Virus record (IMG/VR): IMGVR_UViG_3300037067_003476
Coordinates: 1 to 64,000 of that record
From: a virus
Taxonomy: Duplodnaviria; Caudoviricetes
Length of the DNA: 64,000 bases
Strand: one strand, 5' to 3'
Within the stretch, counting starts at the first letter, position 1. The number at the start of each line of letters is the position of its first letter. Below the pieces are notes generated by a model. The model saw nothing but the letters and a program-made list of their open reading frames with translations. It made no database searches and was not told the DNA's origin. Positions 1 to 63,696 of the stretch are shown piece by piece. A program made the position numbers and the translations under genes.

Positions 1-1
1 C

Positions 2-742
2 ACCAAAGAGTTTCGCGACTACATCAAAGGCAGATCACTCAATTTAATGGGTTGTCAAAGTCTGGTTTCGTTACCAGACAACTTGAACGTCTGTGGGGAT
101 TTACATCTTAATGGCTGCACAGCACTTAAATCGCTGCCAGATAACTTGAAAATTGGCGGATATTTAGATCTTCGTAGCTGCATAGCACTTAAATCGCTGC
201 CAAACAATTTGAGGGTTGGCAGAGATCTATATCTTCGTAGCTGCATAGCACTTAAATCGCTGCCAAACAATTTGAGGGTTGGCAGAGATCTATATCTTCG
301 TAGCTGCATAGCACTTAAATCGCTGCCAAACAATTTTAGGGTTGGCAGAGATCTATATCTTCATAACTGCACAGCACTCAAATCGCTGCCAGACAAGTTG
401 AGAGTCGGTAGAAGTTTACATCTTAATGGCTGCACAGCACTCAAGTCGCTGCCAAACAATTTGAAAGTTGGCGGAAATTTATATCTTGGTGGCTGCACAG
501 CACTCAAGTCGCTGCCAAACAATTTGAGAGTCGGTGGAAGTTTACATCTTAATGGCTGCACAGTACTTAAATCGTTGCCAGATAACTTGAAAATTGGCGG
601 ATATTTAGATCTTCGTAGCTGCATAGCACTTAAATCGCTGCCAAACAATTTTAGGGTTGGCAGAGATCTATATCTTCATAACTGCACAGCACTCAAATCG
701 TTGCCAGATAACTTGAAAGTCAAAGTAAGTTGTAGAAGCTGA
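2..742 (+). CDS. Leucine-rich repeat protein (21-aa LRR units), 5' partial; frame is open from the window edge (TKEFRDYIKGRSLNLMGC...)
   Basis: About 10 tandem LKSLPxNLxVGxxLxLxxCTA units; no stop upstream of ATG 47; the upstream sequence matches the paralog at 11281, which has a ~95-aa N-terminal domain. Confidence 0.9.
   Translation, partial: TKEFRDYIKGRSLNLMGCQSLVSLPDNLNVCGDLHLNGCTALKSLPDNLKIGGYLDLRSCIALKSLPNNLRVGRDLYLRSCIALKSLPNNLRVGRDLYLRSCIALKSLPNNFRVGRDLYLHNCTALKSLPDKLRVGRSLHLNGCTALKSLPNNLKVGGNLYLGGCTALKSLPNNLRVGGSLHLNGCTVLKSLPDNLKIGGYLDLRSCIALKSLPNNFRVGRDLYLHNCTALKSLPDNLKVKVSCRS
62..721 (+). repeat. 63-bp coding tandem repeat array (~10.5 units)
   Basis: Repeated cttaaatcgctgcca...ctgcacagca units; units at 188 and 251 identical. 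Confidence 0.95.
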
Positions 743-792
743 GAAGTTCGTCAAAGACAAGAAAGATCTTCTGACGAAAGGAGATAATAACA

Positions 793-1104
793 ATGCTTGA
801 GGATATAGGTAATCTTAGTCTGTCTAGGCCAGATGATGCGAATATCCCGGTTACTATATTTATTAGTCAAATAGATGAAAAGGGCGACCCCAATTACGGA
901 AAGTTCAGATTGACGGCAGAGAATTTCATGCCAAGACGATCATCCGTATCCTCGGAAGCCTACGAGGCAATTGCGGACAACAGAGAAGAGTTTAAAGACT
1001 TCCTGAATAAAGTTCGCGAGCTATACGTAGCCGCATTGACCAAGATCGACGCGATGATAAATGAAAGTGAGGATAGTTTGTATTACTGGCGGATAAAGGA
1101 TTAA
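793..1104 (+). CDS. hypothetical protein
   Basis: ORF with AGGAG RBS. Confidence 0.7.
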   Translation: MLEDIGNLSLSRPDDANIPVTIFISQIDEKGDPNYGKFRLTAENFMPRRSSVSSEAYEAIADNREEFKDFLNKVRELYVAALTKIDAMINESEDSLYYWRIKD

Positions 1105-1226
1105 CACAATGGGATTCTGGCAAACCGTCCTGATTGAACTAGGGTCATCCTACTAAACACAATATTGTATCTTGGTGGATGGTATAACTAGCCAAAGTCG
1201 GGTCTGGCGCAGACGGGAGAAACAGG

Positions 1227-1451
1227 ATGAGGTTGATCGGCATAATCCTGAACGGAAAGGAATTTCCCGGCATAATACGGGTAAATAGAGATGGCAAGAT
1301 TAATCTAACAATAGAGACTGTTTCAGGATCTGTGTTATTCAAGAATACCAGTATTTCAAAGGTCGTAGAAGTGTTAGACGGAAAAGGATCACTAACCAGC
1401 AAAGGATTAACTAGGTTGGTCGACATGGTATCGCGACAAGATGAGGTATAG
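1227..1451 (+). CDS. hypothetical protein
   Basis: ORF with GGAG RBS. Confidence 0.55.
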   Translation: MRLIGIILNGKEFPGIIRVNRDGKINLTIETVSGSVLFKNTSISKVVEVLDGKGSLTSKGLTRLVDMVSRQDEV

Positions 1452-1505
1452 GAAAATATCTCAACTTATTGTAGTTGATACGAAATAGCAACTAGGGGCC
1501 ACATT

Positions 1506-1697
1506 ATGCTAAACTTAGTACCACTCCGGTTTAAGTCTGCTGTTGATGCGCTAATAAGCGCCGCTAACAAACTTGAACAAGAAATTCGTACTGAAGAGAA
1601 AAATAAGGCCGTTACAAAAATAAAGGAATGGTTTTTTATGTACGAAAAGGTTGATATAAATATTGATACTTTGATAAAGAGTATATTAGACGAGTAA
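1506..1697 (+). CDS. hypothetical protein
   Basis: co-oriented short ORF. Confidence 0.5.
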   Translation: MLNLVPLRFKSAVDALISAANKLEQEIRTEEKNKAVTKIKEWFFMYEKVDINIDTLIKSILDE

Positions 1698-1723
1698 ATT
1701 CGTCTGCAAGACGGAGAATATAT

Positions 1724-1924
1724 ATGGCGGATAAGATTCGGCAATACGCCATCGTCGATACGCAAGGGAACATAGTCCCTAATACGGTCAGCGATGATGG
1801 TGCAAAATGTTGGATAATGTTTCTAAGTATACCTATGTTTTACAAATATATTTCCAGTGGCATCGATGCTGCAATAAAAGATGGTTACAGAAGATCTTTA
1901 GTGGAGGTGTCAAATGAAAAATAA
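1724..1924 (+). CDS. hypothetical protein
   Basis: GGAG RBS, coupled to next gene. Confidence 0.6.
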   Translation: MADKIRQYAIVDTQGNIVPNTVSDDGAKCWIMFLSIPMFYKYISSGIDAAIKDGYRRSLVEVSNEK

Positions 1925-2444
1925 TATTACAAGTCTTAGAGATATTTACTATCCAATAGGTTCTGGTACTCAACTTTTTTATGGTATTGCGCGACTACGC
2001 GATATGATCGCAGAATATCCAGTAGATATCGACTGTGATTTTCAAAGGGGCCACGTATGGACTACAAAACAAAAACAATTGTTCGTCGGGCATCTATTAG
2101 AAGGTGGTCAGATTCCATCCTGTATTCTTAACGTCGATCCTGAAGAAACCTTATCTGCTGCCCAATTAGTAGACGGCAAGCAGAGAATGACAGCATGTAT
2201 CGATTGGTGCGAAGGGGTCGTAGTAGCAGAATTAAGTGATGGTAGATTTATTAAATACAACGAGTTAGATAAAACGAGTATAACAATGTGCTCTATGACC
2301 ATTGGGCTACGATTTATTATAACTAAGATGACAAGGAAAGACGTTTTATCTCTGTATATTAAGCTCAATAGAGGTGGAACCGTACACACAGAGGAAGAGA
2401 TAAACAAGGTCAAAGAATTGCTTAAAGCAGAACAAGGGAAATAA
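1914..2444 (+). CDS. DUF262 (GmrS-like ParB/Srx) domain protein
   Basis: FQRGHVW, P-x-x-I, LVDGKQR and LNRGGT motifs; GGAGG RBS. Confidence 0.85.
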   Translation: MKNNITSLRDIYYPIGSGTQLFYGIARLRDMIAEYPVDIDCDFQRGHVWTTKQKQLFVGHLLEGGQIPSCILNVDPEETLSAAQLVDGKQRMTACIDWCEGVVVAELSDGRFIKYNELDKTSITMCSMTIGLRFIITKMTRKDVLSLYIKLNRGGTVHTEEEINKVKELLKAEQGK

Positions 2445-2445
2445 T

Positions 2446-2703
2446 ATGGCTTTCTCTAAATATCACGGAAGATGCGTAGGAAGACTTATGTATTTCCTGT
2501 ATCATTATCATCAGGATTTTGATGAATGTCAGATGGGAGATGGAGAGGTAACATTTCATGGGAAAGTAGTCGCTAAATATGTTTGGGATGGAGACACAGA
2601 CATCCCGACGTTTGTTTTCTATGGACGTTTTGAGTATCTAAATCAAGTACAGGATCGGTTGAAGAAACAAGTTCTTGAAGGAGACAAGGGATGGAAATCG
2701 TAG
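2446..2703 (+). CDS. hypothetical protein
   Basis: packed ORF. Confidence 0.6.
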   Translation: MAFSKYHGRCVGRLMYFLYHYHQDFDECQMGDGEVTFHGKVVAKYVWDGDTDIPTFVFYGRFEYLNQVQDRLKKQVLEGDKGWKS

Positions 2704-2945
2704 GCAAGCCAGCTATGATAAAGGCGTTTGTCAACAAGTCTGGCGGAATGGCTGTATGGGGACGTTGCACTATCGTTGCAGAATCCAGGGATAATATCGC
2801 GGTAGAATCTACACAAAGGGTTTATAATTCAAAAAAGAAGCAGGTCGAAAGCAGGTCTGCTATTTTTGATTGTTACGATCAGGTAGTGCGTACAGATATC
2901 ATTCCCAAAAAAACAATAATGGAAATGGTCTTATACTCTAACTAA
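2691..2945 (+). CDS. hypothetical protein
   Basis: packed ORF with RBS. Confidence 0.6.
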   Translation: MEIVGKPAMIKAFVNKSGGMAVWGRCTIVAESRDNIAVESTQRVYNSKKKQVESRSAIFDCYDQVVRTDIIPKKTIMEMVLYSN

Positions 2946-2966
2946 TTAGAAAGGATAAAAAAGACA

Positions 2967-3146
2967 ATGAATGATCTACTTATTGGTGTTGATTTCTGTG
3001 CGTGTGGCCCACTTAACACGATCAGGTGCGATGGTGCATGTCGCAAGTCTCACATAAACAACGATGGAGAGGTTGTGTGTTCCGAAAAGTATCGGTACTC
3101 TCCGCCTCCTAGAAAGAGGGAAAAGAAGAAGGAAGATAGACAATGA
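2967..3146 (+). CDS. small Cys-rich hypothetical protein (59 aa, not in ORF track)
   Basis: MNDLLIGVDFCACGPLNTIRCDGAC...; AAGGA upstream. Confidence 0.5.
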   Translation: MNDLLIGVDFCACGPLNTIRCDGACRKSHINNDGEVVCSEKYRYSPPPRKREKKKEDRQ

Positions 3147-3446
3147 TGTCGTTGGCATGCTTTTTAACGGGGCTGATACTCGGTGCGTTTTATCCAAGAA
3201 TATTCGCTAGGATAAAAGATATTAACTGGGAATGGCTAGTAGACGACTTTGATCGTAACATAAGGCACTAAGCGATTGTGATGCGCAGGTAGTACAGAGT
3301 TACAACAAAACCGGTGTACCTGCAAAGCACACATCGTTTTTATTCAAGCCGACTAGATAGTTGTGTATGTACATACCCGACTATCGAATAGCGGACTAGG
3401 GGTGGGTGGAGTCGGTTGTAGAACCCCATTTATTTGGAGGTGTGAT

Positions 3447-3980
3447 GTGTGTTCTGGTTACCTATTAAACGTTATGAATACCAACAAGCTTGAACAAATA
3501 GTGAAAGACATATCTGAGTTTCTTAGTTCTCAATGCATCGATTTCAATTCTATCGCCGCAAGAGGATTGAGTGGCACACTGGTGTCGTCGCCCGTATGTA
3601 TTGCGACAGGCAAAAGCATAGTGGTTGTGCGAAAGGGCGAAAGTACCCACGGATACGAGGTGGAGGCTGACGTGTGTCCAAGTCGATACATTATAATCGA
3701 CGACTTTATAGATACTGGAGCAACGATAAAGGCAATAATAAATAGAATCAGTGGCCTTTATATTGGGACAAAATGTGTTGGGGTAGTTTTATACCAACAG
3801 TATATTCACGACATAGATGATCAGGGTATAGTATTTTTTGACACATCCTTCGTGGACGATGCAAAAATAGCCGAACTGGTCGTAGAAGACGCCTATCGAA
3901 TAAAATCTCGAAAACAAGTCGATGGAAGCGAACTTAAAACTACGATATACAAAAGATCAGGGGCAAATCATAATGACTAG
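3447..3980 (+). CDS. Type I phosphoribosyltransferase-family protein
   Basis: PRPP-binding loop IIIDDFIDTGAT, RGLSG, VRK; likely GTG start at 3447 after GGAGG. Confidence 0.85.
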   Translation: MCSGYLLNVMNTNKLEQIVKDISEFLSSQCIDFNSIAARGLSGTLVSSPVCIATGKSIVVVRKGESTHGYEVEADVCPSRYIIIDDFIDTGATIKAIINRISGLYIGTKCVGVVLYQQYIHDIDDQGIVFFDTSFVDDAKIAELVVEDAYRIKSRKQVDGSELKTTIYKRSGANHND

Positions 3981-4353
3981 TACCGATGAAATACGAGCCA
4001 TAGCAACCAGGGTAAGAGGGTGGGCAGAAAAAAGATCTGTGTACGAAAGATCAGACTTAACGGGAATGTGTGCTATATGCTCATATCGCATTGGAAGATT
4101 GTTAACTAGACATGGCTATAGGCCAAAATTGTGTATGAACAAAAATCACGCCTTTATAACACTTGGAAGAGGAAAACAAAGAATAGTTGTTGATGTAACG
4201 GCCACACAGTTCGACCATACGGAAAAGGTAGTTATAACAAATCTCATAGACAAATGGTACTGGAAAATAACAGACGGGGTTAGATTGCCCGCCGACAGAA
4301 AAAGGATACAAAAAATGTTCCATGCTTGGCCATTGGAACAAAGGCCGATATGA
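3973..4353 (+). CDS. putative transglutaminase/papain-fold protein (Cys-His-Asp)
   Basis: GMCAICS...NHAF...VVDVTATQF spacing fits a C-H-D triad. Confidence 0.5.
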   Translation: MTSTDEIRAIATRVRGWAEKRSVYERSDLTGMCAICSYRIGRLLTRHGYRPKLCMNKNHAFITLGRGKQRIVVDVTATQFDHTEKVVITNLIDKWYWKITDGVRLPADRKRIQKMFHAWPLEQRPI

Positions 4354-4520
4354 GAAATCGCGATATTCGCAAGATACATCAACTTATTGTCGACAACGAA
4401 ATCTACTAATTCCCATTTCGTATCGCAGCCATGTTCATACGAGCAGGCAAGGATACTAGATATATTTGTACAGCACAATTCCATAGTTTCGGAACATCAT
4501 TTTACGACGCGAGGTAAACA

Positions 4521-4961
4521 ATGCCAATATTTCCCGTCCAGCAAATCGCGGTATGTTGCAGAGATGCGATAGAGCAACCACATTGCAGTCGCACACCATT
4601 TGTATTGATATCTATCCGTGACAGTAAAAGCAAACCAGTTAACGTTACATGCGAAAAATTAGTTGACGCGATTTATCTGGTATTTGACGACATATCAAAA
4701 CACATAGATGGTCTTGTTATCATGAACGATAAACACGCAATACAAATTGCCGACTTTGTGATACGTTGGCATCGGCACCCACTAATTGTATGTCAATGTG
4801 AAGCTGGAATTTCAAGAAGCGCTGGGGTTGCTGCGGCCATTATGAATTATTTGGGTGGTGATGATGAATTGATATTCAACAGCGACATGCTACTACCAAA
4901 TATATATGTATATGATAAGATACGATCAGAATTTCTAAAGCGAGTTACTGGGAAACATTAG
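4521..4961 (+). CDS. Protein tyrosine/dual-specificity phosphatase-like protein
   Basis: CX5R loop QCEAGISRSAG; upstream FDD; downstream PN. Confidence 0.85.
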   Translation: MPIFPVQQIAVCCRDAIEQPHCSRTPFVLISIRDSKSKPVNVTCEKLVDAIYLVFDDISKHIDGLVIMNDKHAIQIADFVIRWHRHPLIVCQCEAGISRSAGVAAAIMNYLGGDDELIFNSDMLLPNIYVYDKIRSEFLKRVTGKH

Positions 4962-5013
4962 AATGGAACGAAATATGCGTAGACTACTGTAATAAAGCCA
5001 AAGGGAAAAAGAA

Positions 5014-5727
5014 ATGAAATGTCCAAACTGTAAAACAGATCTACTTGAATCAACAGAAAAAATAGCCTATGAAACTATGAGCGATCACGTTTGCGATCCA
5101 AACACAGATCCTCCAGCTAGAACATTTTTCTATTGCAAAAATCCAAACTGCGCATTATTTGAGTCGGCATTCTGGGATAGTTACGGAGATTTTTACGGAA
5201 AAGATCATAATGCAGATCAATGGTACGAGAACAATTCTCGCTATAGCTTTGTATCAAAAACATTCAATAGAAAAGGCGCCAGTGCTCTCAATTCTTTTAG
5301 TAGAGAATTTGAAGATGGATGCATAAAAAGAGAGAGGTATTGGTGGAGACGACTAAGGAATAGACTTCACACCAGACGTGGAAACTTTGGAGTTGAAATT
5401 AGACGAGATTATAATCCACTTTTATATGATTCTGATCCAAATTGGCCAAAGTCTTTGACTAAATGGAAGTACATGATCGGCGTTTGGATAATGGACCCAC
5501 TAGGAAGAAGATATTCAAAATACATCAGTCGCCACAAAAGTTTTCCAACAACTGATATTACGTGTTTGGCTCAGTGGAGATATCACCCGTATCCATGGGT
5601 AAGATGGATTGTTGGAAGATATCTTGATAAGGTATGTATTGAACATTGTTTTGAATCCAGACCATACTATGGGGAACCAACTTATATGATTTGTAACAAT
5701 TGTTTTAAAATTGTGGAGAAAAAATGA
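5014..5727 (+). CDS. hypothetical protein with CxxC motifs
   Basis: 237-aa ORF. Confidence 0.7.
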   Translation: MKCPNCKTDLLESTEKIAYETMSDHVCDPNTDPPARTFFYCKNPNCALFESAFWDSYGDFYGKDHNADQWYENNSRYSFVSKTFNRKGASALNSFSREFEDGCIKRERYWWRRLRNRLHTRRGNFGVEIRRDYNPLLYDSDPNWPKSLTKWKYMIGVWIMDPLGRRYSKYISRHKSFPTTDITCLAQWRYHPYPWVRWIVGRYLDKVCIEHCFESRPYYGEPTYMICNNCFKIVEKK

Positions 5728-5769
5728 CATGACGAGAACTTCTTGGAGTAATTAAAAGGAAGGATAAAC

Positions 5770-6051
5770 ATGAGTAGTACAGTATGTCTACAGGCAACTG
5801 AATTCGTTAACAAACCACAAGGTACTAAGACATTCGGCTATCGTATCTATGATGATTGTGACCAGATGTACGATAATAATCTTGAAATAATGATAGATGA
5901 TGATTTAGAATTACTTCAATATGCATTGACATCTGATAATAGTCGTATATTAGATATGCTATCCTTTCTGGTAGAAGAAACACAGTGTGGTATGGAGATT
6001 AATGGTCAATGGTATGAATGGGATAAAATAAAGCAATTATTTGAGGAATAA
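5770..6051 (+). CDS. hypothetical protein
   Basis: AGGA RBS. Confidence 0.65.
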   Translation: MSSTVCLQATEFVNKPQGTKTFGYRIYDDCDQMYDNNLEIMIDDDLELLQYALTSDNSRILDMLSFLVEETQCGMEINGQWYEWDKIKQLFEE

Positions 6052-11280: not shown

Positions 11281-11817
11281 ATGTGTCAATTTATTAGTGG
11301 CTGGATAAACCAAGAAGGCGAAATTTTGATTCGTGACTTTCGCAGTCACTCAGGAACCGAGAGGGCTCTTGGACGAAGCCTCGAAAGGGAGGGGTATCGC
11401 CCCTGGGAGTGGACACGAGATGATAGTGGCGAATCGCTGACTGTACGCATCGTTCCAAACGAGGAATGGAACGAGGCTGCGTACAAGAGTCTTATTCTCT
11501 CGCGATACCAGAGTCGAGGCGACCTGGGTTATAGTGTCGTCAACACCAAAGAGTTTCGCGACTACATCAAAAATTAATCACTCAACTTAATGGATTGTTG
11601 GAGTCTGGTCTCGTTACCAGACAACTTGAAAATTGGCGGAAATTTATGTATTGATAGCTGCACAGTACTTAAATCGCTGCCAAACAATTTAAGGGTTGGC
11701 ACAGATCTATATCTTTATAACTGCACAGCACTTAAATCGCTGCCAGATAACTTGAAAGTTGGCGGAAATCTATATCTTGATGGCTGCACAGCACTACAAC
11801 CCCCAAAACAATCCTAA
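11281..11817 (+). pseudogene. Second LRR gene copy interrupted by an in-frame TAA (11575-11577), three LRR units, degenerate end
   Basis: ORFs 11281-11577 and 11590-11817 share a frame; 11544-11571 is identical to window 1-28; TAA aligns with AGA of the first copy. Confidence 0.85.
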
Positions 11818-30261: not shown

Positions 30262-30397
30262 CGGAGACAATGGGCACTTTGATGTTAGTCAAATAGCGAA
30301 TGGAGATAATGGAATCGTACACAAAAAGTGTATTTCGATTTTCGACAAATCGCCTCTCGCTCTGATAGACGCTAGGATGGTGCAAGATGATGGATAG
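30188..30397 (+). CDS. small C/H zinc-binding hypothetical protein
   Basis: CEIC...HKKC. Confidence 0.5.
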   Translation: MKCEICRMDCVKGDEVFVVVSAVVNGDNGHFDVSQIANGDNGIVHKKCISIFDKSPLALIDARMVQDDG

Positions 30398-31847
30398 CGA
30401 TAAAATACAATCGATATTCGGTCCAGAAAAATGCCTCATCCACAAGGGGATATCAGTTAATAGTGATAATTTTCGACAGTTGCCGAGATATGTGTCTGAG
30501 TTTCTGATTAACCATTATGTAGATCCAACAAGCCCCGGAAGTGGATTACAGACAATACAAAAGCTACTGGACGAATATTATGTGGATAGCACTAAAAGAG
30601 AACTGGTTAAGAGCAAGGTACGACAACATGGTTGTTTGCCAATCTTCGGATTAGTACGAGCCAGATACGAACAGCACAAAGATGTGTATCTTGCAGATGT
30701 CCCGTCTCTTGGGGATGACAAGGTACGAGTTGCAGAGTGTGTGTTGCGCAGGCATGGTGACGACTTATTAACTACAGGGGTGTGGGGTAGTGTCAATGTT
30801 ATGTATGACAGACAGTCTGGTAAATATCCGTTTATTGTTGCGGATTTTACTCCAATGCAAACTACCAAGATCGATATCAATAATTGGGTATTGGCAAGAG
30901 AAAATTTCAACACAAACGAATGGATAGACTTAATTATCACTAGTATTGGATTCAATCCATTGTCACTATCGCACGACGAGAAAATGCTGTACCTGTATCG
31001 ACTCATACCACTGATCCAGTGTGGCGTAAATATAGTTGAGCTTGGACCACCAGAGAGTGGAAAGACGTATACATATAGAAACATTAGTACGTATTCGCAT
31101 GTGATCAGTGGTTCAAGTACTACAATGGCGACATTATTCTATAACAAACTCCGGAGAAAGATAGGGGCTGTCGGAAAGTTCGATTGTATTTTGTTCGACG
31201 AGATAGCTCACGCAGATTTGCGCAGAGAGATGGTTGATATAGTTAATACGCTAAAGGATTTTATGGGTTCTGGGAAATTCGGTAGAGACGGAGAGGAGTT
31301 TTCGTCTGATTGTAGTATTGTATTAGCTGGTAACATAGACACAGACAGAAAACAGCGTCGTGTAAGTGGGTTTTACCGCCATTTATTTTCTCCGCTACCA
31401 AAAATCATATCTGAAGATAGGGCATTTCTCGACAGGATACATGGATATATTCCAGGATGGTGTGCTCACCAGATTATACCGAGCGATTTTGCAGATACAT
31501 ATGGCTGGATGATGGATTATTTTTCTGAGGTTATGCACAGGATGAGGACTAGAAATTACGAATACATAATTCAGGAACGGGTGGATATGCCGGGAATGGG
31601 ACAACGAAACAAAACCTCAATTCTCCGTCTCGCAACAGGGCTAATTAAGCTAATTTTCCCACACAGAACACACGAGACAATACAAAACGATGAATTGGCA
31701 TTTGTTTTGCAGTATGCAACAGATCTACGACAGAGAGTCGTTGATCAGTTGGCAGTAATATCTCCAGGTGAATTTGGTGGCAAACTTTCCTTTAACATCA
31801 GGGAGGGGTGTTATGCAAGTAAAAATATTGAGTCAACCGGTTCTTAA
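30387..31847 (+). CDS. BrxL-like ATPase lacking the Lon protease domain
   Basis: LPRYVSEFL, VELGPPESGKTYTYRNIS, ATLFYN, LFDEIA, AFLDRIHGYIPGW. Confidence 0.85.
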   Translation: MMDSDKIQSIFGPEKCLIHKGISVNSDNFRQLPRYVSEFLINHYVDPTSPGSGLQTIQKLLDEYYVDSTKRELVKSKVRQHGCLPIFGLVRARYEQHKDVYLADVPSLGDDKVRVAECVLRRHGDDLLTTGVWGSVNVMYDRQSGKYPFIVADFTPMQTTKIDINNWVLARENFNTNEWIDLIITSIGFNPLSLSHDEKMLYLYRLIPLIQCGVNIVELGPPESGKTYTYRNISTYSHVISGSSTTMATLFYNKLRRKIGAVGKFDCILFDEIAHADLRREMVDIVNTLKDFMGSGKFGRDGEEFSSDCSIVLAGNIDTDRKQRRVSGFYRHLFSPLPKIISEDRAFLDRIHGYIPGWCAHQIIPSDFADTYGWMMDYFSEVMHRMRTRNYEYIIQERVDMPGMGQRNKTSILRLATGLIKLIFPHRTHETIQNDELAFVLQYATDLRQRVVDQLAVISPGEFGGKLSFNIREGCYASKNIESTGS

Positions 31848-55785: not shown

Positions 55786-56698
55786 GCTAAGCGCCAGTGC
55801 GATAAAGTCGTACAAGTTTTGTCCGTTTCAATACTTGATGTCCTATCTACTGGAATTTGAACCCCAGTCCGGAAAAGCGGCTGTGTTAGGGAGTATAGTT
55901 CATCAAGTATTCGAATGGATTGGATTATTGGTTAAGAGGGGCAAGACGATAGATGTTGAGTGGTTGATTGATCGTGCATGGGATATGTACATAGAAAACA
56001 ACGCGCACCTTGGATTAAAGAGGGTGAATCGAAATGGTGAGTCCGCTGACTTTAGATTGTGTAGAACATCTGTCAATGCGGTTCTGTCTAGCCCCCTGTA
56101 TAATCCGTGGACATTAAACATTCTGGATGTTGAAAAAAGATTTGATATATCTATGCCGGGTATCGCATGGACGACACCATCTGGTCAATTTCGTATTACT
56201 GGCTATATAGATATGGTTCACGAAATCAATCCGGATACAGTAGAAATAGTAGATTGGAAAACAGGTAGGCGCACCGATTATGGATCTATGAAGCAAAAGG
56301 ATTTCTATGATATGATGAGTGACGCCCAGGCTCGCATTTATCACTTTGCGGCCAATCAACTATATCCAAAGTACAAAAATATTCTAGTTACATTCTATTA
56401 CATCAATGACGGAGGACCGATTACGCTACCATATTCTGTTGACGATATGATTATGACAGTTGGCGCTTTGTGGAGAATATTCAAGAAGATCCAGACCGAA
56501 GAACTCGTTACCAGAAGTGTCTCGTGGAAGTGTAGTAAATTTTGCCAGTTTGGTCGTATGAGAGTTTGTGATTCTATTTGGAAGGATTTCTCGGATCACA
56601 ACCTAGCATTTGTAGCAGATAAATACCGCAAGATGTCTCTGGAAAAACAACAAGAGTATAAGGAAGATAATAATGGGAATATACGTACCACTTCATAA
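55772..56698 (+). CDS. PD-(D/E)XK exonuclease, RecB/Cas4-like
   Basis: LSAS....FCP, GYID, VDWKTG, QARIY, C...C...C. Confidence 0.88.
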   Translation: MNVCKLSASAIKSYKFCPFQYLMSYLLEFEPQSGKAAVLGSIVHQVFEWIGLLVKRGKTIDVEWLIDRAWDMYIENNAHLGLKRVNRNGESADFRLCRTSVNAVLSSPLYNPWTLNILDVEKRFDISMPGIAWTTPSGQFRITGYIDMVHEINPDTVEIVDWKTGRRTDYGSMKQKDFYDMMSDAQARIYHFAANQLYPKYKNILVTFYYINDGGPITLPYSVDDMIMTVGALWRIFKKIQTEELVTRSVSWKCSKFCQFGRMRVCDSIWKDFSDHNLAFVADKYRKMSLEKQQEYKEDNNGNIRTTS

Positions 56699-58982
56699 TC
56701 ACACACACTTTTCATTACTAGACGGATTGCCGTCTCCCAAGAGAATAATTGCCCGTGCCAAGGACTTGGGTTGTCCAGCCATAGCAATGACTGATCATGG
56801 CAACATATGTGGCATGGTGGACTTTCAAAGGGCTGGCAAGAAAAGCGGTGTAAAGTCCATAATTGGTATAGAGCTATATCTATGTAGACATGATCCATCG
56901 GTTCGCGACGAAACAAACCGACAGCATTTTCACCTTACTATTCTAGCGAAGAATCATGCTGGCGTAGAAACACTAATATCTCTTGTTAGCGAAATGAACA
57001 GACCAGACTGGTTCTATAGAAAGCCGAGGATTAATCTTGATTTTCTAAAACGATTTACGAGCGACGGAAACTTAATCTGTCTATCCGGGTGTCTAATAGG
57101 GGAGTTATCGCATTGTTTATTTAGCGACCACAAGGAAGCTTGTAAAATCAGTAATACTACAAACGACAAAAGCAAAGTAAGATTACTGTTAAAAGACAAC
57201 TGGAAGGATGTTGCCAACGAAGTCGTAGACAAATATATTGACGTGTTCGGTAAGGATAACTATTACATAGAATTGCAAGAAGAGGGTATGGCTGTACAAC
57301 AAATCGTCGTAGACTGTCTGCGAGATACTAGTAAAAACCTTGGAATACCATCGGTAGCCACATTAGACAGTCACTATGCATGCCGAGAAGATGCTGACGA
57401 CCAACGAATACTACTTTACGCACAGATGCATACAACCCAAGAAGAACAATCGCGTATCAGGGCCAGTGGCGGCGACACTATGGAATTTTTCTGCTCAGAT
57501 AAGTTTTACATATTTTCATACGACGAAATGACACAACACTACAGCCAACAAGAGATCGAAACGTCGCTAGAAATAGCGGACAAATGTGGTACCCCAAAAC
57601 TCGGCCGCGCTCCGTGTCTACCGAAATTCACGACAACCAAAGACAAAACATCTGACGAACTACTTCGGGACATGTGTATAAATGGTGCCAAACAAAAATT
57701 ATGTAACCTGGATTCCGACAAAAAACTGGAATATTGGAATAGGCTTAACACAGAACTAGATACCATCAAAGAAGCTAAGCTTGCGGACTACTTTCTAATT
57801 GTCGCAGACGTATGTAGATTTGTCGATCAGAACGATGGCCCAAGGGGAAAGGGGCGTGGCTCTGGTGCCGGGTCTATTGTGAACTACCTAATCGGTGTTA
57901 CCGATATAGACCCAATAACCTATGGCCTTTACTTTGAAAGATTCTATAACAACAGCCGTAACATACCACCACACTTTAATATTGGGGCCAAAGACTTTAT
58001 GACATGGCTATCCGACCTCGACCATATCATTACTGGCGACGAGATATCACAAGCACGAAAACAGATATCTTCTGTCGTGCATAAAAAACATCGTTCATAC
58101 GATATGGCCATGATTAAGAGCGAAGCCAAATGGATAGACGATAATAGTCCAAAGATGTGGTGTTATATAGCGAGCCGATTAGAAGATAGGGATTGTGTAA
58201 ATGACAACAATTCTCAGATCGCGTATGCGACTGGCATAACCAACGACATCAGAAGTCACCCGGTATCCACAGTAGATGCCCATATTAGTTTGCCAGATAT
58301 CGACACGGACATTGGCGTTGTATTTAGGTCTCGGGTTATCGACTATTTGAATGAAAAGTGGGGCAGTGATAAGGTGTCTCAAATTGTCACATTTGGTAGA
58401 TTACAGGGAAAGGCTGCTCTAAAAGAAGTATTTAGGGCACAGCCGAACACAGTCAAGCATCTAATGCAAGTGCGTGCAACAAAACTCGGCGAAGATCCAA
58501 GCAAGTGTATTATTAAACCGCATGATCTGTGCAACGAAATCACTAGTCATATCCCGGACGAAGCAGCCATTGCGGACGAACTTCAAGAAATGAGAGAGGA
58601 AACCGGAGATGATACATATGGAATTCTTCAGTGGGCAGTTGACAATATCGATCCCGTAAAAGAGGCATATAGGTGGTACAAACCGCTATTTGATCAGGCC
58701 ATGAGAATCGAAGGAACTAAGAAATCACAAAGCAAACATGCGGCGGGTATAGTTATCGCTGATCGACCAATCAGAGAACTTGTTCCTATGATGTATGATC
58801 CAAAAAGCAAGACGCAAATATGTGGTTTAGAAATGGGTGCAGCAGAAGCTATGGGGTGTGTGAAATTCGATTTTCTTGGAGTTACAGCGCTAGACAAAAT
58901 CTGGCATGCGATGAACCTCGTTAATGGTAAAGTGCAACAAATAGGTGGTTTCGGAGAATTTGTAGATGGTCAAATTGATTAG
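56673..58982 (+). CDS. dnaE: DNA polymerase III alpha, N-terminal part (PHP + palm)
   Basis: LHNHTHFSLLDG, TDHGN, GRGSGAGS, PDIDTD, HAAG, KFDFLG. Confidence 0.95.
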   Translation: MGIYVPLHNHTHFSLLDGLPSPKRIIARAKDLGCPAIAMTDHGNICGMVDFQRAGKKSGVKSIIGIELYLCRHDPSVRDETNRQHFHLTILAKNHAGVETLISLVSEMNRPDWFYRKPRINLDFLKRFTSDGNLICLSGCLIGELSHCLFSDHKEACKISNTTNDKSKVRLLLKDNWKDVANEVVDKYIDVFGKDNYYIELQEEGMAVQQIVVDCLRDTSKNLGIPSVATLDSHYACREDADDQRILLYAQMHTTQEEQSRIRASGGDTMEFFCSDKFYIFSYDEMTQHYSQQEIETSLEIADKCGTPKLGRAPCLPKFTTTKDKTSDELLRDMCINGAKQKLCNLDSDKKLEYWNRLNTELDTIKEAKLADYFLIVADVCRFVDQNDGPRGKGRGSGAGSIVNYLIGVTDIDPITYGLYFERFYNNSRNIPPHFNIGAKDFMTWLSDLDHIITGDEISQARKQISSVVHKKHRSYDMAMIKSEAKWIDDNSPKMWCYIASRLEDRDCVNDNNSQIAYATGITNDIRSHPVSTVDAHISLPDIDTDIGVVFRSRVIDYLNEKWGSDKVSQIVTFGRLQGKAALKEVFRAQPNTVKHLMQVRATKLGEDPSKCIIKPHDLCNEITSHIPDEAAIADELQEMREETGDDTYGILQWAVDNIDPVKEAYRWYKPLFDQAMRIEGTKKSQSKHAAGIVIADRPIRELVPMMYDPKSKTQICGLEMGAAEAMGCVKFDFLGVTALDKIWHAMNLVNGKVQQIGGFGEFVDGQID

Positions 58983-59409: not shown

Positions 59410-59977
59410 AACGCAGTTACTGCTAAGCCTTTGTGAACAGATTGCTGGATGTAGGAAATGCGAATTATATCACAAAAGAACTAATTCTGTTTGTGGATAC
59501 GGAAACACAGAAGCGTCTATCATGTTTATTGGTGAGGCCCCAGGAGAACAAGAGGATAGTTGTGGTATACCATTTACTGGCAGGTGCGGAAAATACTTTA
59601 GGAAGTGTTTGCTAGATATTGGATTCGATACCACTCAGCATTTTATAACTAATGCAGTAAGATGTAGACCACCTAAAAATAGAACACCGAAGCCAAACGA
59701 AATAGAAAAGTGTCAACAATGGATACATGCCCAATTAGATATCATCCAGCCCAAAGTAATTGTTTGTGTTGGTAAGGTTGCTGCACAATCGATACTACGT
59801 ATTCCGTCTAGCCAATCATTGCAGTCTATAATGAACAGATGGCATAATCATTGGAAAACTGGGATTAAAACCAGGGCCATTTACCATCCTAGCTACATCA
59901 TGCAACACGGCCGTAAACACGAACGGGTTTTCAGGAATGATTTAATGGAGATATTGAACTATGTCCGAACCCATTAA
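59369..59977 (+). CDS. Uracil-DNA glycosylase family 4 (true start may be TTG 59396)
   Basis: CRKC, GEAPG, F.G, CRPP.NR.P, YHPS. Confidence 0.92.
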   Translation: MTWIWRYLSLSPTKTQLLLSLCEQIAGCRKCELYHKRTNSVCGYGNTEASIMFIGEAPGEQEDSCGIPFTGRCGKYFRKCLLDIGFDTTQHFITNAVRCRPPKNRTPKPNEIEKCQQWIHAQLDIIQPKVIVCVGKVAAQSILRIPSSQSLQSIMNRWHNHWKTGIKTRAIYHPSYIMQHGRKHERVFRNDLMEILNYVRTH

Positions 59978-61700
59978 ATTCGATAGATGTAATTGTTCTA
60001 TTGAACATGGCAAGTTTGATATACGTGAAATCCCATTGGATTGTCCAGTTGTGTGGGACTTGATCAGTAGTGGATATACTACTGGTATCTTTCAACTTGA
60101 AACAAAACTTGGACAAGACTGGGCTAGGAAAGTTAGACCGAGAAGTATTGAAGAGCTGTCGGATTTAATTAGCCTGATGCGGCCAGGGCCGTTAGAGTCA
60201 AATATGGCCCAAGATTATGTTGATATCAAATTCGGAAGAAAGCCATTGGAATATCTACATCCTGTACTAAAACCAATTCTTGAATCTACATATTCAGCTT
60301 TACTATATCAGGAACAAAGTCTTAAGATCGCTGTTGAGATTGCTGGATTTTCGCTGATACAAGCTGATTCACTTAGGAAAAGCCTCGGGAAGAAAGACTC
60401 TGTTTTAATGGCGAAAGCAAAAAAGGAATTTGTGGAGGGAGCAGTTAAAAAGGGACTTGTTACAAAATCTGTAGCAGAAGAAATTTTTGGATGGATTGAA
60501 AAGGGACAACGATATATCTTCAACAAATCACACAGTATCAGCTATGCATCATTAGGATATCAGACAGCATGGCTCAAGGCGCATTTCCCACATGAGTTCT
60601 ATGCATCCTACTTGACGTATGCCAAGTTTAAGGGGGATGAAAAAGAAGAGATATACAAGCTAATACAGGATGCCAGACTGTTTGGGATAGAAACTATTTC
60701 ACCAGACATTAGGCTTGGAAACCCTGAGTTTAGATTAGTTGATGGAAAAATTGCGTATGGTCTAGCAAATATTCGCGGTGTTGGTGATGGCGCAATCAAC
60801 AGGATACTTGGGGCTGGCCAGATAGATACATGGCAAAAGTTTCTAGATGCGGTCCCTGGTCTTCATAGAAACGTCGGTGAAGCCCTAATCAAATCCGGGG
60901 CATGCGATTGCTATGGATTGTCAAGATCTCGCATGATAGCTGAATTACAAGCAGTACTTGGTACAAATGTGCGAGACGAACAAGGGGAGAGGGTGGATAT
61001 CAAGGGATTGACGGATCGGGAAAAGGATTGGTTCTTCACCAATTTTCACAAATTTGGTAGCACGGCGAGTACATTACAGGGAATGATGAATATACAGAAT
61101 ATTGTGCCGGTTGCTAGGTTGACCAAAAAACAGGTTATTGAAACTATACTAGAATTGAATGGCGATATTAAGAGAGATGATATATGTAAGATGAAACGCG
61201 CAGAACTCAATGATATGTTAAGGGAACTTGGGTATGATCCTGGTGAACAAATACGTATTTCCCCTTCTAGAAGATCGGCGATACTTGATAAGATCAAACA
61301 GCTTGATGCGGTTTTTGAAGATACCCCAAGGGTTAAGGCTGAGGCTGAAAAGTATTTTCTTGGAATATCGTTATCGTGCTCACCCGTTGATGGTATTGGG
61401 GATGATCGGGCGACCCATACATGCGTGGATGTTGCCAGGGCATTGAGTGGAGAAGAATGTAGGGTTTGCGCAATTACAGATATGGTTAAGCATACAAAAA
61501 CAAAAAAGGGAAAGAATCCTGGTTCTCCGATGTGCTTCGTGACATTATCGGACTCCACTTACTCATTAGACCATGCTGTTGTATTTCCTGATGCATATCA
61601 GAAAAACAAGGATTTGTGTACTGAAAATTTAATCGTGTTGGTAACAGGGACAAAAAGAGACGGTTCTTTTATTGTCTCTGATATGAAAAAGTTGATATAG
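59961..61700 (+). CDS. dnaE: DNA polymerase III alpha, C-terminal part (fingers, HhH, OB)
   Basis: GIFQLE, RPGP, YQEQ, FNKSH..SY, IRGVG, EKYFLG, OB fold MCFVTLSD. Confidence 0.95.
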   Translation: MSEPIKFDRCNCSIEHGKFDIREIPLDCPVVWDLISSGYTTGIFQLETKLGQDWARKVRPRSIEELSDLISLMRPGPLESNMAQDYVDIKFGRKPLEYLHPVLKPILESTYSALLYQEQSLKIAVEIAGFSLIQADSLRKSLGKKDSVLMAKAKKEFVEGAVKKGLVTKSVAEEIFGWIEKGQRYIFNKSHSISYASLGYQTAWLKAHFPHEFYASYLTYAKFKGDEKEEIYKLIQDARLFGIETISPDIRLGNPEFRLVDGKIAYGLANIRGVGDGAINRILGAGQIDTWQKFLDAVPGLHRNVGEALIKSGACDCYGLSRSRMIAELQAVLGTNVRDEQGERVDIKGLTDREKDWFFTNFHKFGSTASTLQGMMNIQNIVPVARLTKKQVIETILELNGDIKRDDICKMKRAELNDMLRELGYDPGEQIRISPSRRSAILDKIKQLDAVFEDTPRVKAEAEKYFLGISLSCSPVDGIGDDRATHTCVDVARALSGEECRVCAITDMVKHTKTKKGKNPGSPMCFVTLSDSTYSLDHAVVFPDAYQKNKDLCTENLIVLVTGTKRDGSFIVSDMKKLI

Positions 61701-62199: not shown

Positions 62200-63696
62200 A
62201 TGGGTAAAAAACGACTACTGTTTGTAGGCGAAGCAAGTTATCTAGCTACTGGTTTTTCTACATATTGGAATGAAGTCATTAAGCGAATAAACGCAACCGG
62301 TAGGTTTGAGGTAGCGGAATTTGGTTCATATGCTGGTGACTCGGATCCAAGAAATCAGCATGTTCCATGGAAATTCTACTCTAACGCCCCAGACCCAAAT
62401 GACCAAGCAGCCAACCAAGCATATCATTCTAGGCACACCAATCAGTTTGGTGAGTGGCGACTTAATGATGTATTGCTAGATTGGAAGCCCGACACACTTC
62501 TCTTATTGCGTGATTTTTGGATGGATGAGTTCGTATTAAGATCTCCTCTTAGGAGTAACTTCAAGGTTATTTGGATGCCGACCATAGACGGCGCACCCCA
62601 ACGCAAACTCTGGGTCGACGCATACAAGCAGTGCGATGCGATAATGACATATTCCCAATGGGGTAAAAATCTACTTGAAAAAGAATATGACCTAAAGGTA
62701 ACTGCGGTAGCATCTCCTGGAGCGGAATTAGATTTGTTCAAGCCAGTTCCAGACAAGGGGGCGCATAAAGCTAAACACGGGATAAACCCTTCGTCATTCA
62801 TTATTGGTACGGTAATGCGAAATCAAAAACGCAAGTTGTATGTAGACCTAATAGAAGCATTCGCCGAATGGCTACGCTCATCAAAGAAAAGTTCTCATCT
62901 AGATATTGCGAAGAAAACGTATTTGTACCTACACACCAGTTATCCAGATGTCGGATATGACATTGGTGACGCAATACAAAAATTCAAGGTTGGCAACAAG
63001 GTACTAATGACATATTTATGTTCTGCTTGTGGAACTGCGTATCCATCATTCTTCTCCGGAGAATGGACGCATTGTCGAAGATGTGGTAAGTTAGCGGCAC
63101 ATCCACCGAACGCCAACCACTCCGTTGGGAGGGATGTTCTTGCTAGTATATACAATCTCTTTGATGTGTATGTACAGTATTCAATTTGTTTGCACCCAGA
63201 TACCCCAATATTGTTAAGTGACTACACACATAAACGGATAGCAGACATTAAATCTGGTGATAAAATTATAAACGGAAATGGGGATACCGTTGATGTTGAT
63301 TGGTGTAAACAAACCAGCAATACGTCATCTACGGTCGAAATAACGACACACGAAAATCCCAAACCAGTCATAGTTACCAAGGACCATCGTGTTCTAACTA
63401 TGAACGAAAATGGTGAATTTGTATTTATAGAAGCCAAGGATCTTCTGAATAAATGGGTCGTTTGCCCAGCCAATAACGCCAAGATTTTTGACGCTATCAA
63501 GATACATAACCCAAGGAAGAATAGTAAATACAGGAAAAAATACAAAGACTATCTTTTGATAAAGGTTAAGTCGGTCGAACCAAGCGACTATACCGGCCCT
63601 GTCTACGATCTTGCGGTTGTTCCGCCGAAAGGGGGTGATGCCAACTCTCGCAGTTTCGTTGCGAACCATTTCGTAACACATAACTGTGAGGGTTAA
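62200..63696 (+). CDS. GT4 glycosyltransferase with zinc-ribbon insert and intein; ends at TAA inside the catalytic motif
   Basis: TGF, RDFW, RNQKRK, YNLFDVYVQYSI-[intein]-CEG*. Confidence 0.88.
   Translation: MGKKRLLFVGEASYLATGFSTYWNEVIKRINATGRFEVAEFGSYAGDSDPRNQHVPWKFYSNAPDPNDQAANQAYHSRHTNQFGEWRLNDVLLDWKPDTLLLLRDFWMDEFVLRSPLRSNFKVIWMPTIDGAPQRKLWVDAYKQCDAIMTYSQWGKNLLEKEYDLKVTAVASPGAELDLFKPVPDKGAHKAKHGINPSSFIIGTVMRNQKRKLYVDLIEAFAEWLRSSKKSSHLDIAKKTYLYLHTSYPDVGYDIGDAIQKFKVGNKVLMTYLCSACGTAYPSFFSGEWTHCRRCGKLAAHPPNANHSVGRDVLASIYNLFDVYVQYSICLHPDTPILLSDYTHKRIADIKSGDKIINGNGDTVDVDWCKQTSNTSSTVEITTHENPKPVIVTKDHRVLTMNENGEFVFIEAKDLLNKWVVCPANNAKIFDAIKIHNPRKNSKYRKKYKDYLLIKVKSVEPSDYTGPVYDLAVVPPKGGDANSRSFVANHFVTHNCEG
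63187..63684 (+). mobile_element. Mini-intein (166 aa, no homing endonuclease)
   Basis: Block A CLHPDTPI, block B VTKDHRVL, block F VYDLAV, block G FVANHFVTHN followed by Cys+1. Confidence 0.93.

Follow-up and report, generated by a model that had tools for sequence, protein, structure and literature searches.

Three paralogous loci coding for LRR proteins (loci A, B and C), together with one N-domain start at the contig end, were found on an IMG/VR viral contig of 143,155 bp from an uncultured phage, rated as linear and 86% complete. The stretch of DNA analysed here, called the window, corresponds to the first 64 kb of this contig. Portal and large terminase genes were located at 108.9-113.5 kb of the contig, which identifies it as a tailed phage, and DnaB, a split DNA polymerase III alpha, a ribonucleotide reductase and a BrxL-like Lon ATPase are all encoded within the window. 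Megablast of window positions 1-6000 against 50,697 phage records gave no match, with no near relative among deposited phage genomes. The LRR genes sit amid small accessory ORFs, outside the structural module, and their neighbours code for a GmrSD_N/DUF262-like protein, a PRTase and a radical SAM protein. The coordinates of the loci are given in Table 1.

Table 1 Features of the LRR loci and of the gene following locus A. Positions are those of the window unless the contig is named.
Feature	Position	Strand	Evidence or comment
Locus A, end of the N-domain/linker (TKEFRDYIK) and partial N-cap LRR unit (G-R-S-L-N-L-M-G-C-Q-S)	2-61	+	ORF list; alignment to paralog C
Locus A, ten full 63-bp (21-aa) Cys-type LRR units, A1-A10	62-691	+	TRF, unit table, Pfam LRR_EndoS
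Locus A, C-terminal partial unit (LKSLPDNLKV), short tail (KVSCRS) and TGA stop	692-742	+	nhmmer partial match at 692-721
Protein of 176 aa with a Pfam match to GmrSD_N (DUF262)	1914-2444		just 3' of locus A; identical contigs in other samples
Locus B, 98-aa ORF, N-domain only, ending at TAA (11575-11577)	11281-11577	+	91-92% protein identity to the N-domain of paralog C
Locus B, LRR region after the stop: rest of the N-cap unit, B1-B3 (11605-11793) and tail	11578-11817	+	
Locus C, intact paralog, 176 aa, three full units	contig 139722-140252, outside the window		own start, distinct upstream region

Elsewhere in the window, a phage homologue of the BREX Lon-like protease BrxL was encoded at 30387-31847 (BrxL_ATPase, E 8e-100, and BrxL_N), a defence-system component unusual in a genome of lytic phage type. 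Among the ORFs at 56673-58982, 59961-61700 and 62200-63696, the DNA polymerase III alpha appears to be divided into two, one with the PHP and NTPase regions and the other with the finger and HHH regions, and an intein splicing domain was present at the end of an ORF near it.

The proteins follow a common plan, with an N-domain of ~100 aa, then an N-cap, then 3-10 tandem Cys-type LRRs of 21 residues (LxLxxCxxLxxLPxxLxVGx). In the unit register used here, L-K-S-L-P-x-N-L-x-V-G-x-x-L-x-L-x-x-C-T-A, loci A, B and C contain 10, 3 and 3 full units, respectively, and residues L1, S3, L4, P5, L14 and C19 are invariant across the units. TRF detected the 63-bp period at 98-720 (9.9 copies) and at 11617-11795 (2.8 copies). 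The gene of locus A has its 5' end cut off by the contig start. The first 124 nt of the contig exhibited a single difference from paralog C through the end of unit 1, with zero mismatches over 2-61 and a GGC/GAC change at codon 18 of A1 as the sole difference. In locus B, the TAA stands in place of the AGA that is found in loci A and C at codon 12 of the N-cap unit; the identical TAA is carried by the ENA contig L008, an independent assembly, and is therefore not a read error of this record. The LRR frame of locus B is still open after this stop, with an ATG at 11590 and no obvious Shine-Dalgarno sequence, and locus B is probably a recently truncated paralog.

At the other extremity of the contig, the last 127 nt (143029-143155) correspond to the start of an N-domain gene; they match the beginning of paralog C at 100% identity but are preceded by a different sequence. 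Since both contig ends fall in one gene family, the break lies most likely inside a ~420-nt repeat common to two paralogs. On the sequence of the two ends, the gap between them may be only ~170 bp, and the record would probably represent a nearly complete circular or circularly permuted genome broken in this repeat; if the ends join, locus A would probably be a gene of ~350 aa. Other assemblies were found to end also at these points, within the arrays.

We then examined the N-domain, which starts with M-C-x-F-I/L-S (window 11281-11577; L002:1237-1536) and whose invariant residues are M1, C2, F4, S6, D19, S22, H23, E27, W44 and G50-E-S-L. No family was retrieved for it in Pfam and PHROGs, and the domain is rare, with two to three sequence relatives. 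Its AF2 model has a pLDDT of 92; compared with the PDB, the model gave a best Z of only 3.0 and no known fold, the best BFVD match (E 5e-3) was an uncharacterised phage protein, and leads in the Atlas had scores below 0.8. The N-domain may be a new small phage domain. An N-terminal-nucleophile (Cys2) hydrolase, a candidate prompted by the invariant M-C start and by weak proteasome-subunit rows, was rejected as unsupported.

The LRR assignment was examined by sequence profile and by structure prediction. Pfam LRR_EndoS (PF23952) was the only model matching locus A, with 44.8 bits for a cut-off of 27.9. The AF2 model of the intact paralog has a pLDDT of 85, with DSSP strands at residues 142-144 and 163-165. 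A Foldseek search of the PDB with the complete model gave no match at E <= 1e-3. VIA-align of the LRR part (residues 79-176) gave Z 9.8 with the LRR of RPP1, Z 8.9 with FlrP (rmsd 1.4) and Z 8.4 with the LRR of XopL, and this part is a bona fide LRR. Codons 13-15 of the unit form a beta-strand in the model, so that the variable positions flagged by the first-pass annotation are the expected x positions of the concave face; its description of a phage-encoded LRR with a variable concave face was correct.

The search for relatives showed that three homologues possess the full architecture: P0050 (ENA), L012 (a 246-aa protein on a 2.5-kb contig) and P0071 (JGI). The latter exhibits the same N-domain and four LRR units with W at unit position 13 in all of them, and lies (L011:1830-6025) in the early operon of a temperate phage, divergent from a CI-like repressor (HTH_3 and Peptidase_S24) and an integrase. 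The repeat family itself is large and very common in metagenomes, with 9385 representative clusters at E <= 1e-3, mostly unannotated, and its repeats are sometimes fused to DUF6745 or NEL domains. In 258 homologues, which together hold 1810 unique units, the positions corresponding to the four flagged ones are rich in D/S/N/Y/G/R and contain 8-19% of K/E/Q/W/M. By tblastn of the protein against phage records, only a hypothetical protein of Edwardsiella phage Edno5 was found, matching over the LRR part with 45%, and a search for related loci in viral contigs gave one distant LRR-only relative with 20-residue units. A scan of genome contigs returned a single contig, 2.5 kb long and assigned to the bin of a Paceibacterota MAG; it is probably a phage fragment and uninformative on the host.

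The first-pass annotation had listed the codons at four variable positions and had proposed that they derive from AAY codons, by the action of a diversity-generating retroelement (DGR) or by a VLR-like diversification. Its codon sets were right for all 13 full units of the window, as verified in the unit table: GAT/TAT/AGT/AAT at codon 13, CAT/GAT/TAT/TGT at codon 15, AAT/CGT/CAT/GGT/GAT/TAT at codon 17 and GGC/AGC/AAC at codon 18. The four codons are thus all NNT or NNC in these units, and the encoded residues N, D, Y, H, S, C, R and G form a subset of those reachable from AAY, as a DGR would predict. Reachability from AAY by changes of A only, however, holds for every NNY codon and is therefore uninformative, so that the claim shrinks to the constancy of the third base. 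A nearly constant scaffold had also been described, with variation at the x positions. The face residues do differ from repeat to repeat, but only 8 of the 31 variable columns (of 63) fall in the four codons; the other 23 lie outside them, and 12 columns have no A in any unit, which counts against a DGR. In the same way, the second base of the four codons is A or G only and never C or T, unlike the outcome of unselected adenine mutagenesis.

The constancy of the third base holds at the four codons in the 13 window units, but all of codons 13-21 behave alike, including the scaffold codons CTT, TGC, ACA/ATA and GCA/GTA, and it is broken in other copies. The silent third-base changes reported elsewhere in the unit occur within codons 1-12 and in none of codons 13-21; within the first part, TCG (codon 3) and CCA (codon 5) also lack such variation in the 13 units. 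The hypergeometric probability that the four flagged codons are all third-base constant is P = 0.055. In the N-cap unit of locus A (2-61), the four flagged codons are TCA, AAT, ATG and GGT; locus B has AAC at a flagged codon of this unit where locus A has AAT; and in locus C, codon 15 is TGC and codon 18 is GGA. In the full-architecture homologues, CGG/CGA/GGT/GGA, TGG, GAA, TCT and TTT were found at the flagged positions. Together, these third-base changes or non-AAY codons in the N-cap unit, in locus C and in the homologues argue against adenine-specific mutagenesis. The unit also appeared to consist of two halves, with synonymous variation only in codons 1-12 and amino-acid hypervariability only in codons 13-18; possible causes are that old unit types were shuffled in the 5' half, that the 3' half was recently fixed by selection, or that the nucleotide sequence itself is constrained.

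Of at least 13 changes inferred at the four codons in the 13 window units, none affects the third base (P = 0.005-0.055 according to the null chosen), which counts in favour of a DGR; when locus C was added, the third base accounted for 2 of at least 17 changes (P = 0.04-0.31). A certain excess of amino-acid changes over silent ones in the window units is therefore real and not fully explained. This excess fits positive selection, and is not significant once locus C is included.

The relationships between the units were then considered. A3 is identical to A4 and A5 to A10; A2 and A9 are 1 nt apart, A6 and A8 5 nt, B2 and A5 3 nt, and C1 and A1 1 nt, with only 11 distinct sequences among the 13 window units. 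These identical or near-identical units are therefore not independent samples, and those of locus A point to recent duplications inside the array. Loci A and C are ~100% identical through unit 1, after which 11 of 63 nt differ in unit 2, and this abrupt switch of identity indicates a mosaic. The four codons exhibited a pN of 0.40 compared to a scaffold pS of 0.36-0.37, giving an omega of ~1.1. Inside the four codons, pN/pS was 0.40/0 in the window and 0.405/0.131 with locus C, their own pS being uninformative since they offer under 2 synonymous sites. For the independent pair of homologues P0050 and L012, dN/dS reached 0.94 at the four codons, compared to 0.52 for the LRR scaffold and 0.13 for the N-domain. 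The binding-face codons hence evolve at about the neutral rate, under relaxed or mildly diversifying selection that is not demonstrably strong.

We consider it possible but rather doubtful that an arms race with a host target exerts strong positive (diversifying) selection on the face, which would then be a true variable-binder repertoire and not a product of relaxed constraint. The pN/pS values inside the four codons point in this direction, as do the residue alphabet, polar and aromatic only and typical of binding interfaces, and the comparison of P0050 with L012, which differ at 17 of 28 face codons for an N-domain pN of 0.07. The LRRs of plant NLRs, which have the same fold, evolve under such arms-race selection. 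An omega close to 1 against the scaffold synonymous divergence, also in the P0050/L012 pair, the scarcity of synonymous sites in the four codons and the non-independence of the units speak on the other side. The first-pass annotation had offered strong diversifying selection with unit exchange as its alternative to a DGR; the exchange part stood, duplication and paralog mosaics being visible, but with an omega of ~1 the word strong could not be demonstrated.

The loci were compared with assemblies of other samples. Contigs of the ENA assembly ERZ27247358 and of the Logan run SRR6484325 showed 0 mismatches over 2438, 2027, 5408, 1446 and 2531 nt, stretches that span the whole of loci B (with its TAA) and C as well as units A5-A11 and B3; these being consensus assemblies, minority variants are hidden, and the samples may be related. 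The ENA contig L005 is identical over 294-742, that is, over 449 nt of array A, and the Logan contig L009 is identical from 11728 onward. An assembly artefact as the source of the array was ruled out by the exact reproduction of the 449 nt in an independent assembly. Exact-pattern scans of metagenome and viral contigs with the downstream flank of the array and with the scaffold motif gave no match.

These comparisons bear on a VLR-like scheme with locus A as the long, expressed gene, into which sequence would be copied by programmed gene conversion from two silent donor cassettes, locus B with its stop and the short locus C, to give variants inside a phage population. The proximity of B2 to A5/A10 and of C1 to A1, the abrupt drop of identity between A and C after unit 1, the LRR frame left open behind the stop of locus B and the tendency of assemblies to end inside the arrays are all compatible with it. 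Occasional homologous recombination between paralogs, however, suffices for the mosaics, and contig breaks are expected at any repeat of at least 400 nt. Locus C is a complete gene whose start and upstream region are its own, and therefore not a cassette; the loci are identical wherever the consensus contigs of the two other sample accessions cover them, the 449 nt of array A included; and in a non-exhaustive look no dedicated recombinase was linked to the loci. We thus regard programmed cassette assembly as very unlikely.

The presence of DGR components was investigated over the whole 143,155-bp contig. The six-frame search with the reverse transcriptase profile PF00078 gave 0 matches at E <= 1, control genomes giving matches, and the corresponding search for Avd (PF05635) gave also 0 matches at E <= 1. 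An nhmmer profile of the unit matched only the 16 coding units and one partial unit, and a fuzzy search with the consensus carrying AAT/AAC at the four codons returned coding units only, with none on the minus strand. The remark of the first-pass annotation that no RT or A-rich template is visible was thus extended from the window to the whole contig. That a DGR located in an unassembled part of the phage, as the 86% completeness rating would permit for a distant RT, or in the host mutagenises the AAY codons via an A-rich template is extremely improbable, given that the contig carries neither RT nor Avd nor a template-like unit on either strand, that its ends lie in one gene family with perhaps only ~170 bp missing, that A3/A4 and A5/A10 are identical, that the DNA is the same in the consensus contigs of two other sample accessions, and that the variation extends beyond adenine sites. 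Known DGR targets carry not a tandem array but one VR, located at the 3' end and matched by one TR, which counts also against a DGR. The first-pass annotation had itself stated that the lack of a template and RT, no population-level variation and third-position variation in homologues would reduce the pattern to ordinary repeat evolution; the first and the last were observed here, and for the population level the comparison covered assembled consensus contigs, with 0 mismatches. Its proposal of DGR-like or VLR-like diversification was not retained.

With respect to solved structures, the closest by sequence to the phage LRR (E = 6e-16) is FlrP, an LRR protein on the rod of the Vibrio polar flagellar motor (PDB 8Z5U; bioRxiv 10.64898/2025.12.04.692373). 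FlrP is also among the closest folds, its rmsd of 1.4 at Z 8.9 extending over 78 residues, and has ~21-residue LPxxLxVGGxLxL repeats forming a beta-solenoid. In contrast to the phage proteins, FlrP is a structural component of bacteria, periplasmic, with a Sec signal peptide and without the phage N-domain, and the Cys of the LxxC motif is mostly absent from it in the HMMER alignment. The plant TIR-NLRs (RPP1, Roq1 and ADR2) and the effectors (XopL and SspH1/IpaH) have in common with the phage proteins a LxxLxLxxC/N solenoid; the fold of SspH1 was matched with Z 7.8, and ADR2 and Roq1 were matched by sequence. In these plant TIR-NLR and type III effector LRRs, as in the phage LRR, the concave-face x positions are variable, and they bind ligands. 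P0003, found by sequence as a homologue of the phage repeats, has a NEL E3-ligase domain as in IpaH/SspH. Unlike the phage proteins, which have 176 to ~350 aa and a different N-domain, the plant TIR-NLRs and the effectors combine their LRR with NB-ARC/TIR or NEL domains and function inside eukaryotic cells.

The likeness to DGR proteins such as Mtd of Bordetella phage BPP-1 is one of idea only, a hypervariable binding surface enriched in NAY/NGY-encoded residues. The DGR folds are C-type lectin or Ig whereas the fold here is LRR, the variation is found among tandem paralogous units and not in a VR compared with a template, and no RT, TR, Avd or A-specific mismatches were found on the contig. 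Lamprey and hagfish VLRs have a solenoid with a variable concave face like the phage LRR (a hagfish VLR fusion was matched with Z 7.4), but their genes are put together in somatic cells from flanking cassettes with the help of an AID/APOBEC-like deaminase, whereas the phage arrays are identical where covered by the consensus contigs of other samples.

A comparable situation has been described by Altae-Tran et al. 2020 (PMC10392669) for the hypervariable tandem LRR genes of Flavobacterium psychrophilum and for an LRR family of Dictyostelium purpureum, and the hypervariable position of the Dictyostelium LRR is dominated by Y, D, H and N without any DGR (PMC10392669). As in the phage family, unit numbers vary between paralogs in these loci, a few hypervariable positions lie on one face, and recombination and fragmentation diversify the genes. 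They differ from the phage family in being cell-surface or eukaryotic and in having dozens of copies, compared to three small, likely cytoplasmic genes with a distinct N-domain in the phage. Since the Y/D/H/N-type alphabet is also present in the Dictyostelium LRR proteins, it is a property of LRR interfaces and not a sign of adenine mutagenesis.

Taken together, we consider it highly probable that the loci form a three-member phage LRR paralog family shaped by ordinary repeat evolution, with no DGR and no programmed cassette assembly. The units differ mainly at the solvent-exposed x positions of the beta-strand face; these positions would be free to change, and changes there probably mildly favoured, with the scaffold under purifying selection. 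The array would grow and be reshuffled by duplication or deletion of units and by recombination between paralogs, and the constant third base would reflect the recent common descent of the units, in which only amino-acid-changing substitutions were retained. The proteins are likely cytoplasmic, as they have no signal peptide, and are probably accessory or early-expressed proteins in which the concave face of the LRR would bind host or competitor proteins; the paralogs would then differ in specificity, and the N-domain would give an effector or anchoring function.

Going beyond ordinary repeat evolution, the three loci could constitute a repertoire of interchangeable LRR binders mounted on an undescribed N-terminal effector domain, with faces diversifying against host targets, for instance defence sensors, and new specificities arising by recombination among the long, short and stop-bearing paralogs. 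We judge this improbable; if true, such an LRR-binder repertoire would be a recombination-based counterpart of the tropism or target switching of DGR type.

For the reading of such arrays, 'AAY-like' codons among tandem LRR units are no evidence of a DGR, since any NNY codon fits, and LRR binding faces are generally rich in N/D/Y/H/S/G. Small LRR proteins with a confidently folded, unrecognised N-domain recur in the accessory or early regions of phages and are plausible binders of host proteins. Their targets, if found, could add an LRR-based class to the phage takeover and anti-defence proteins.
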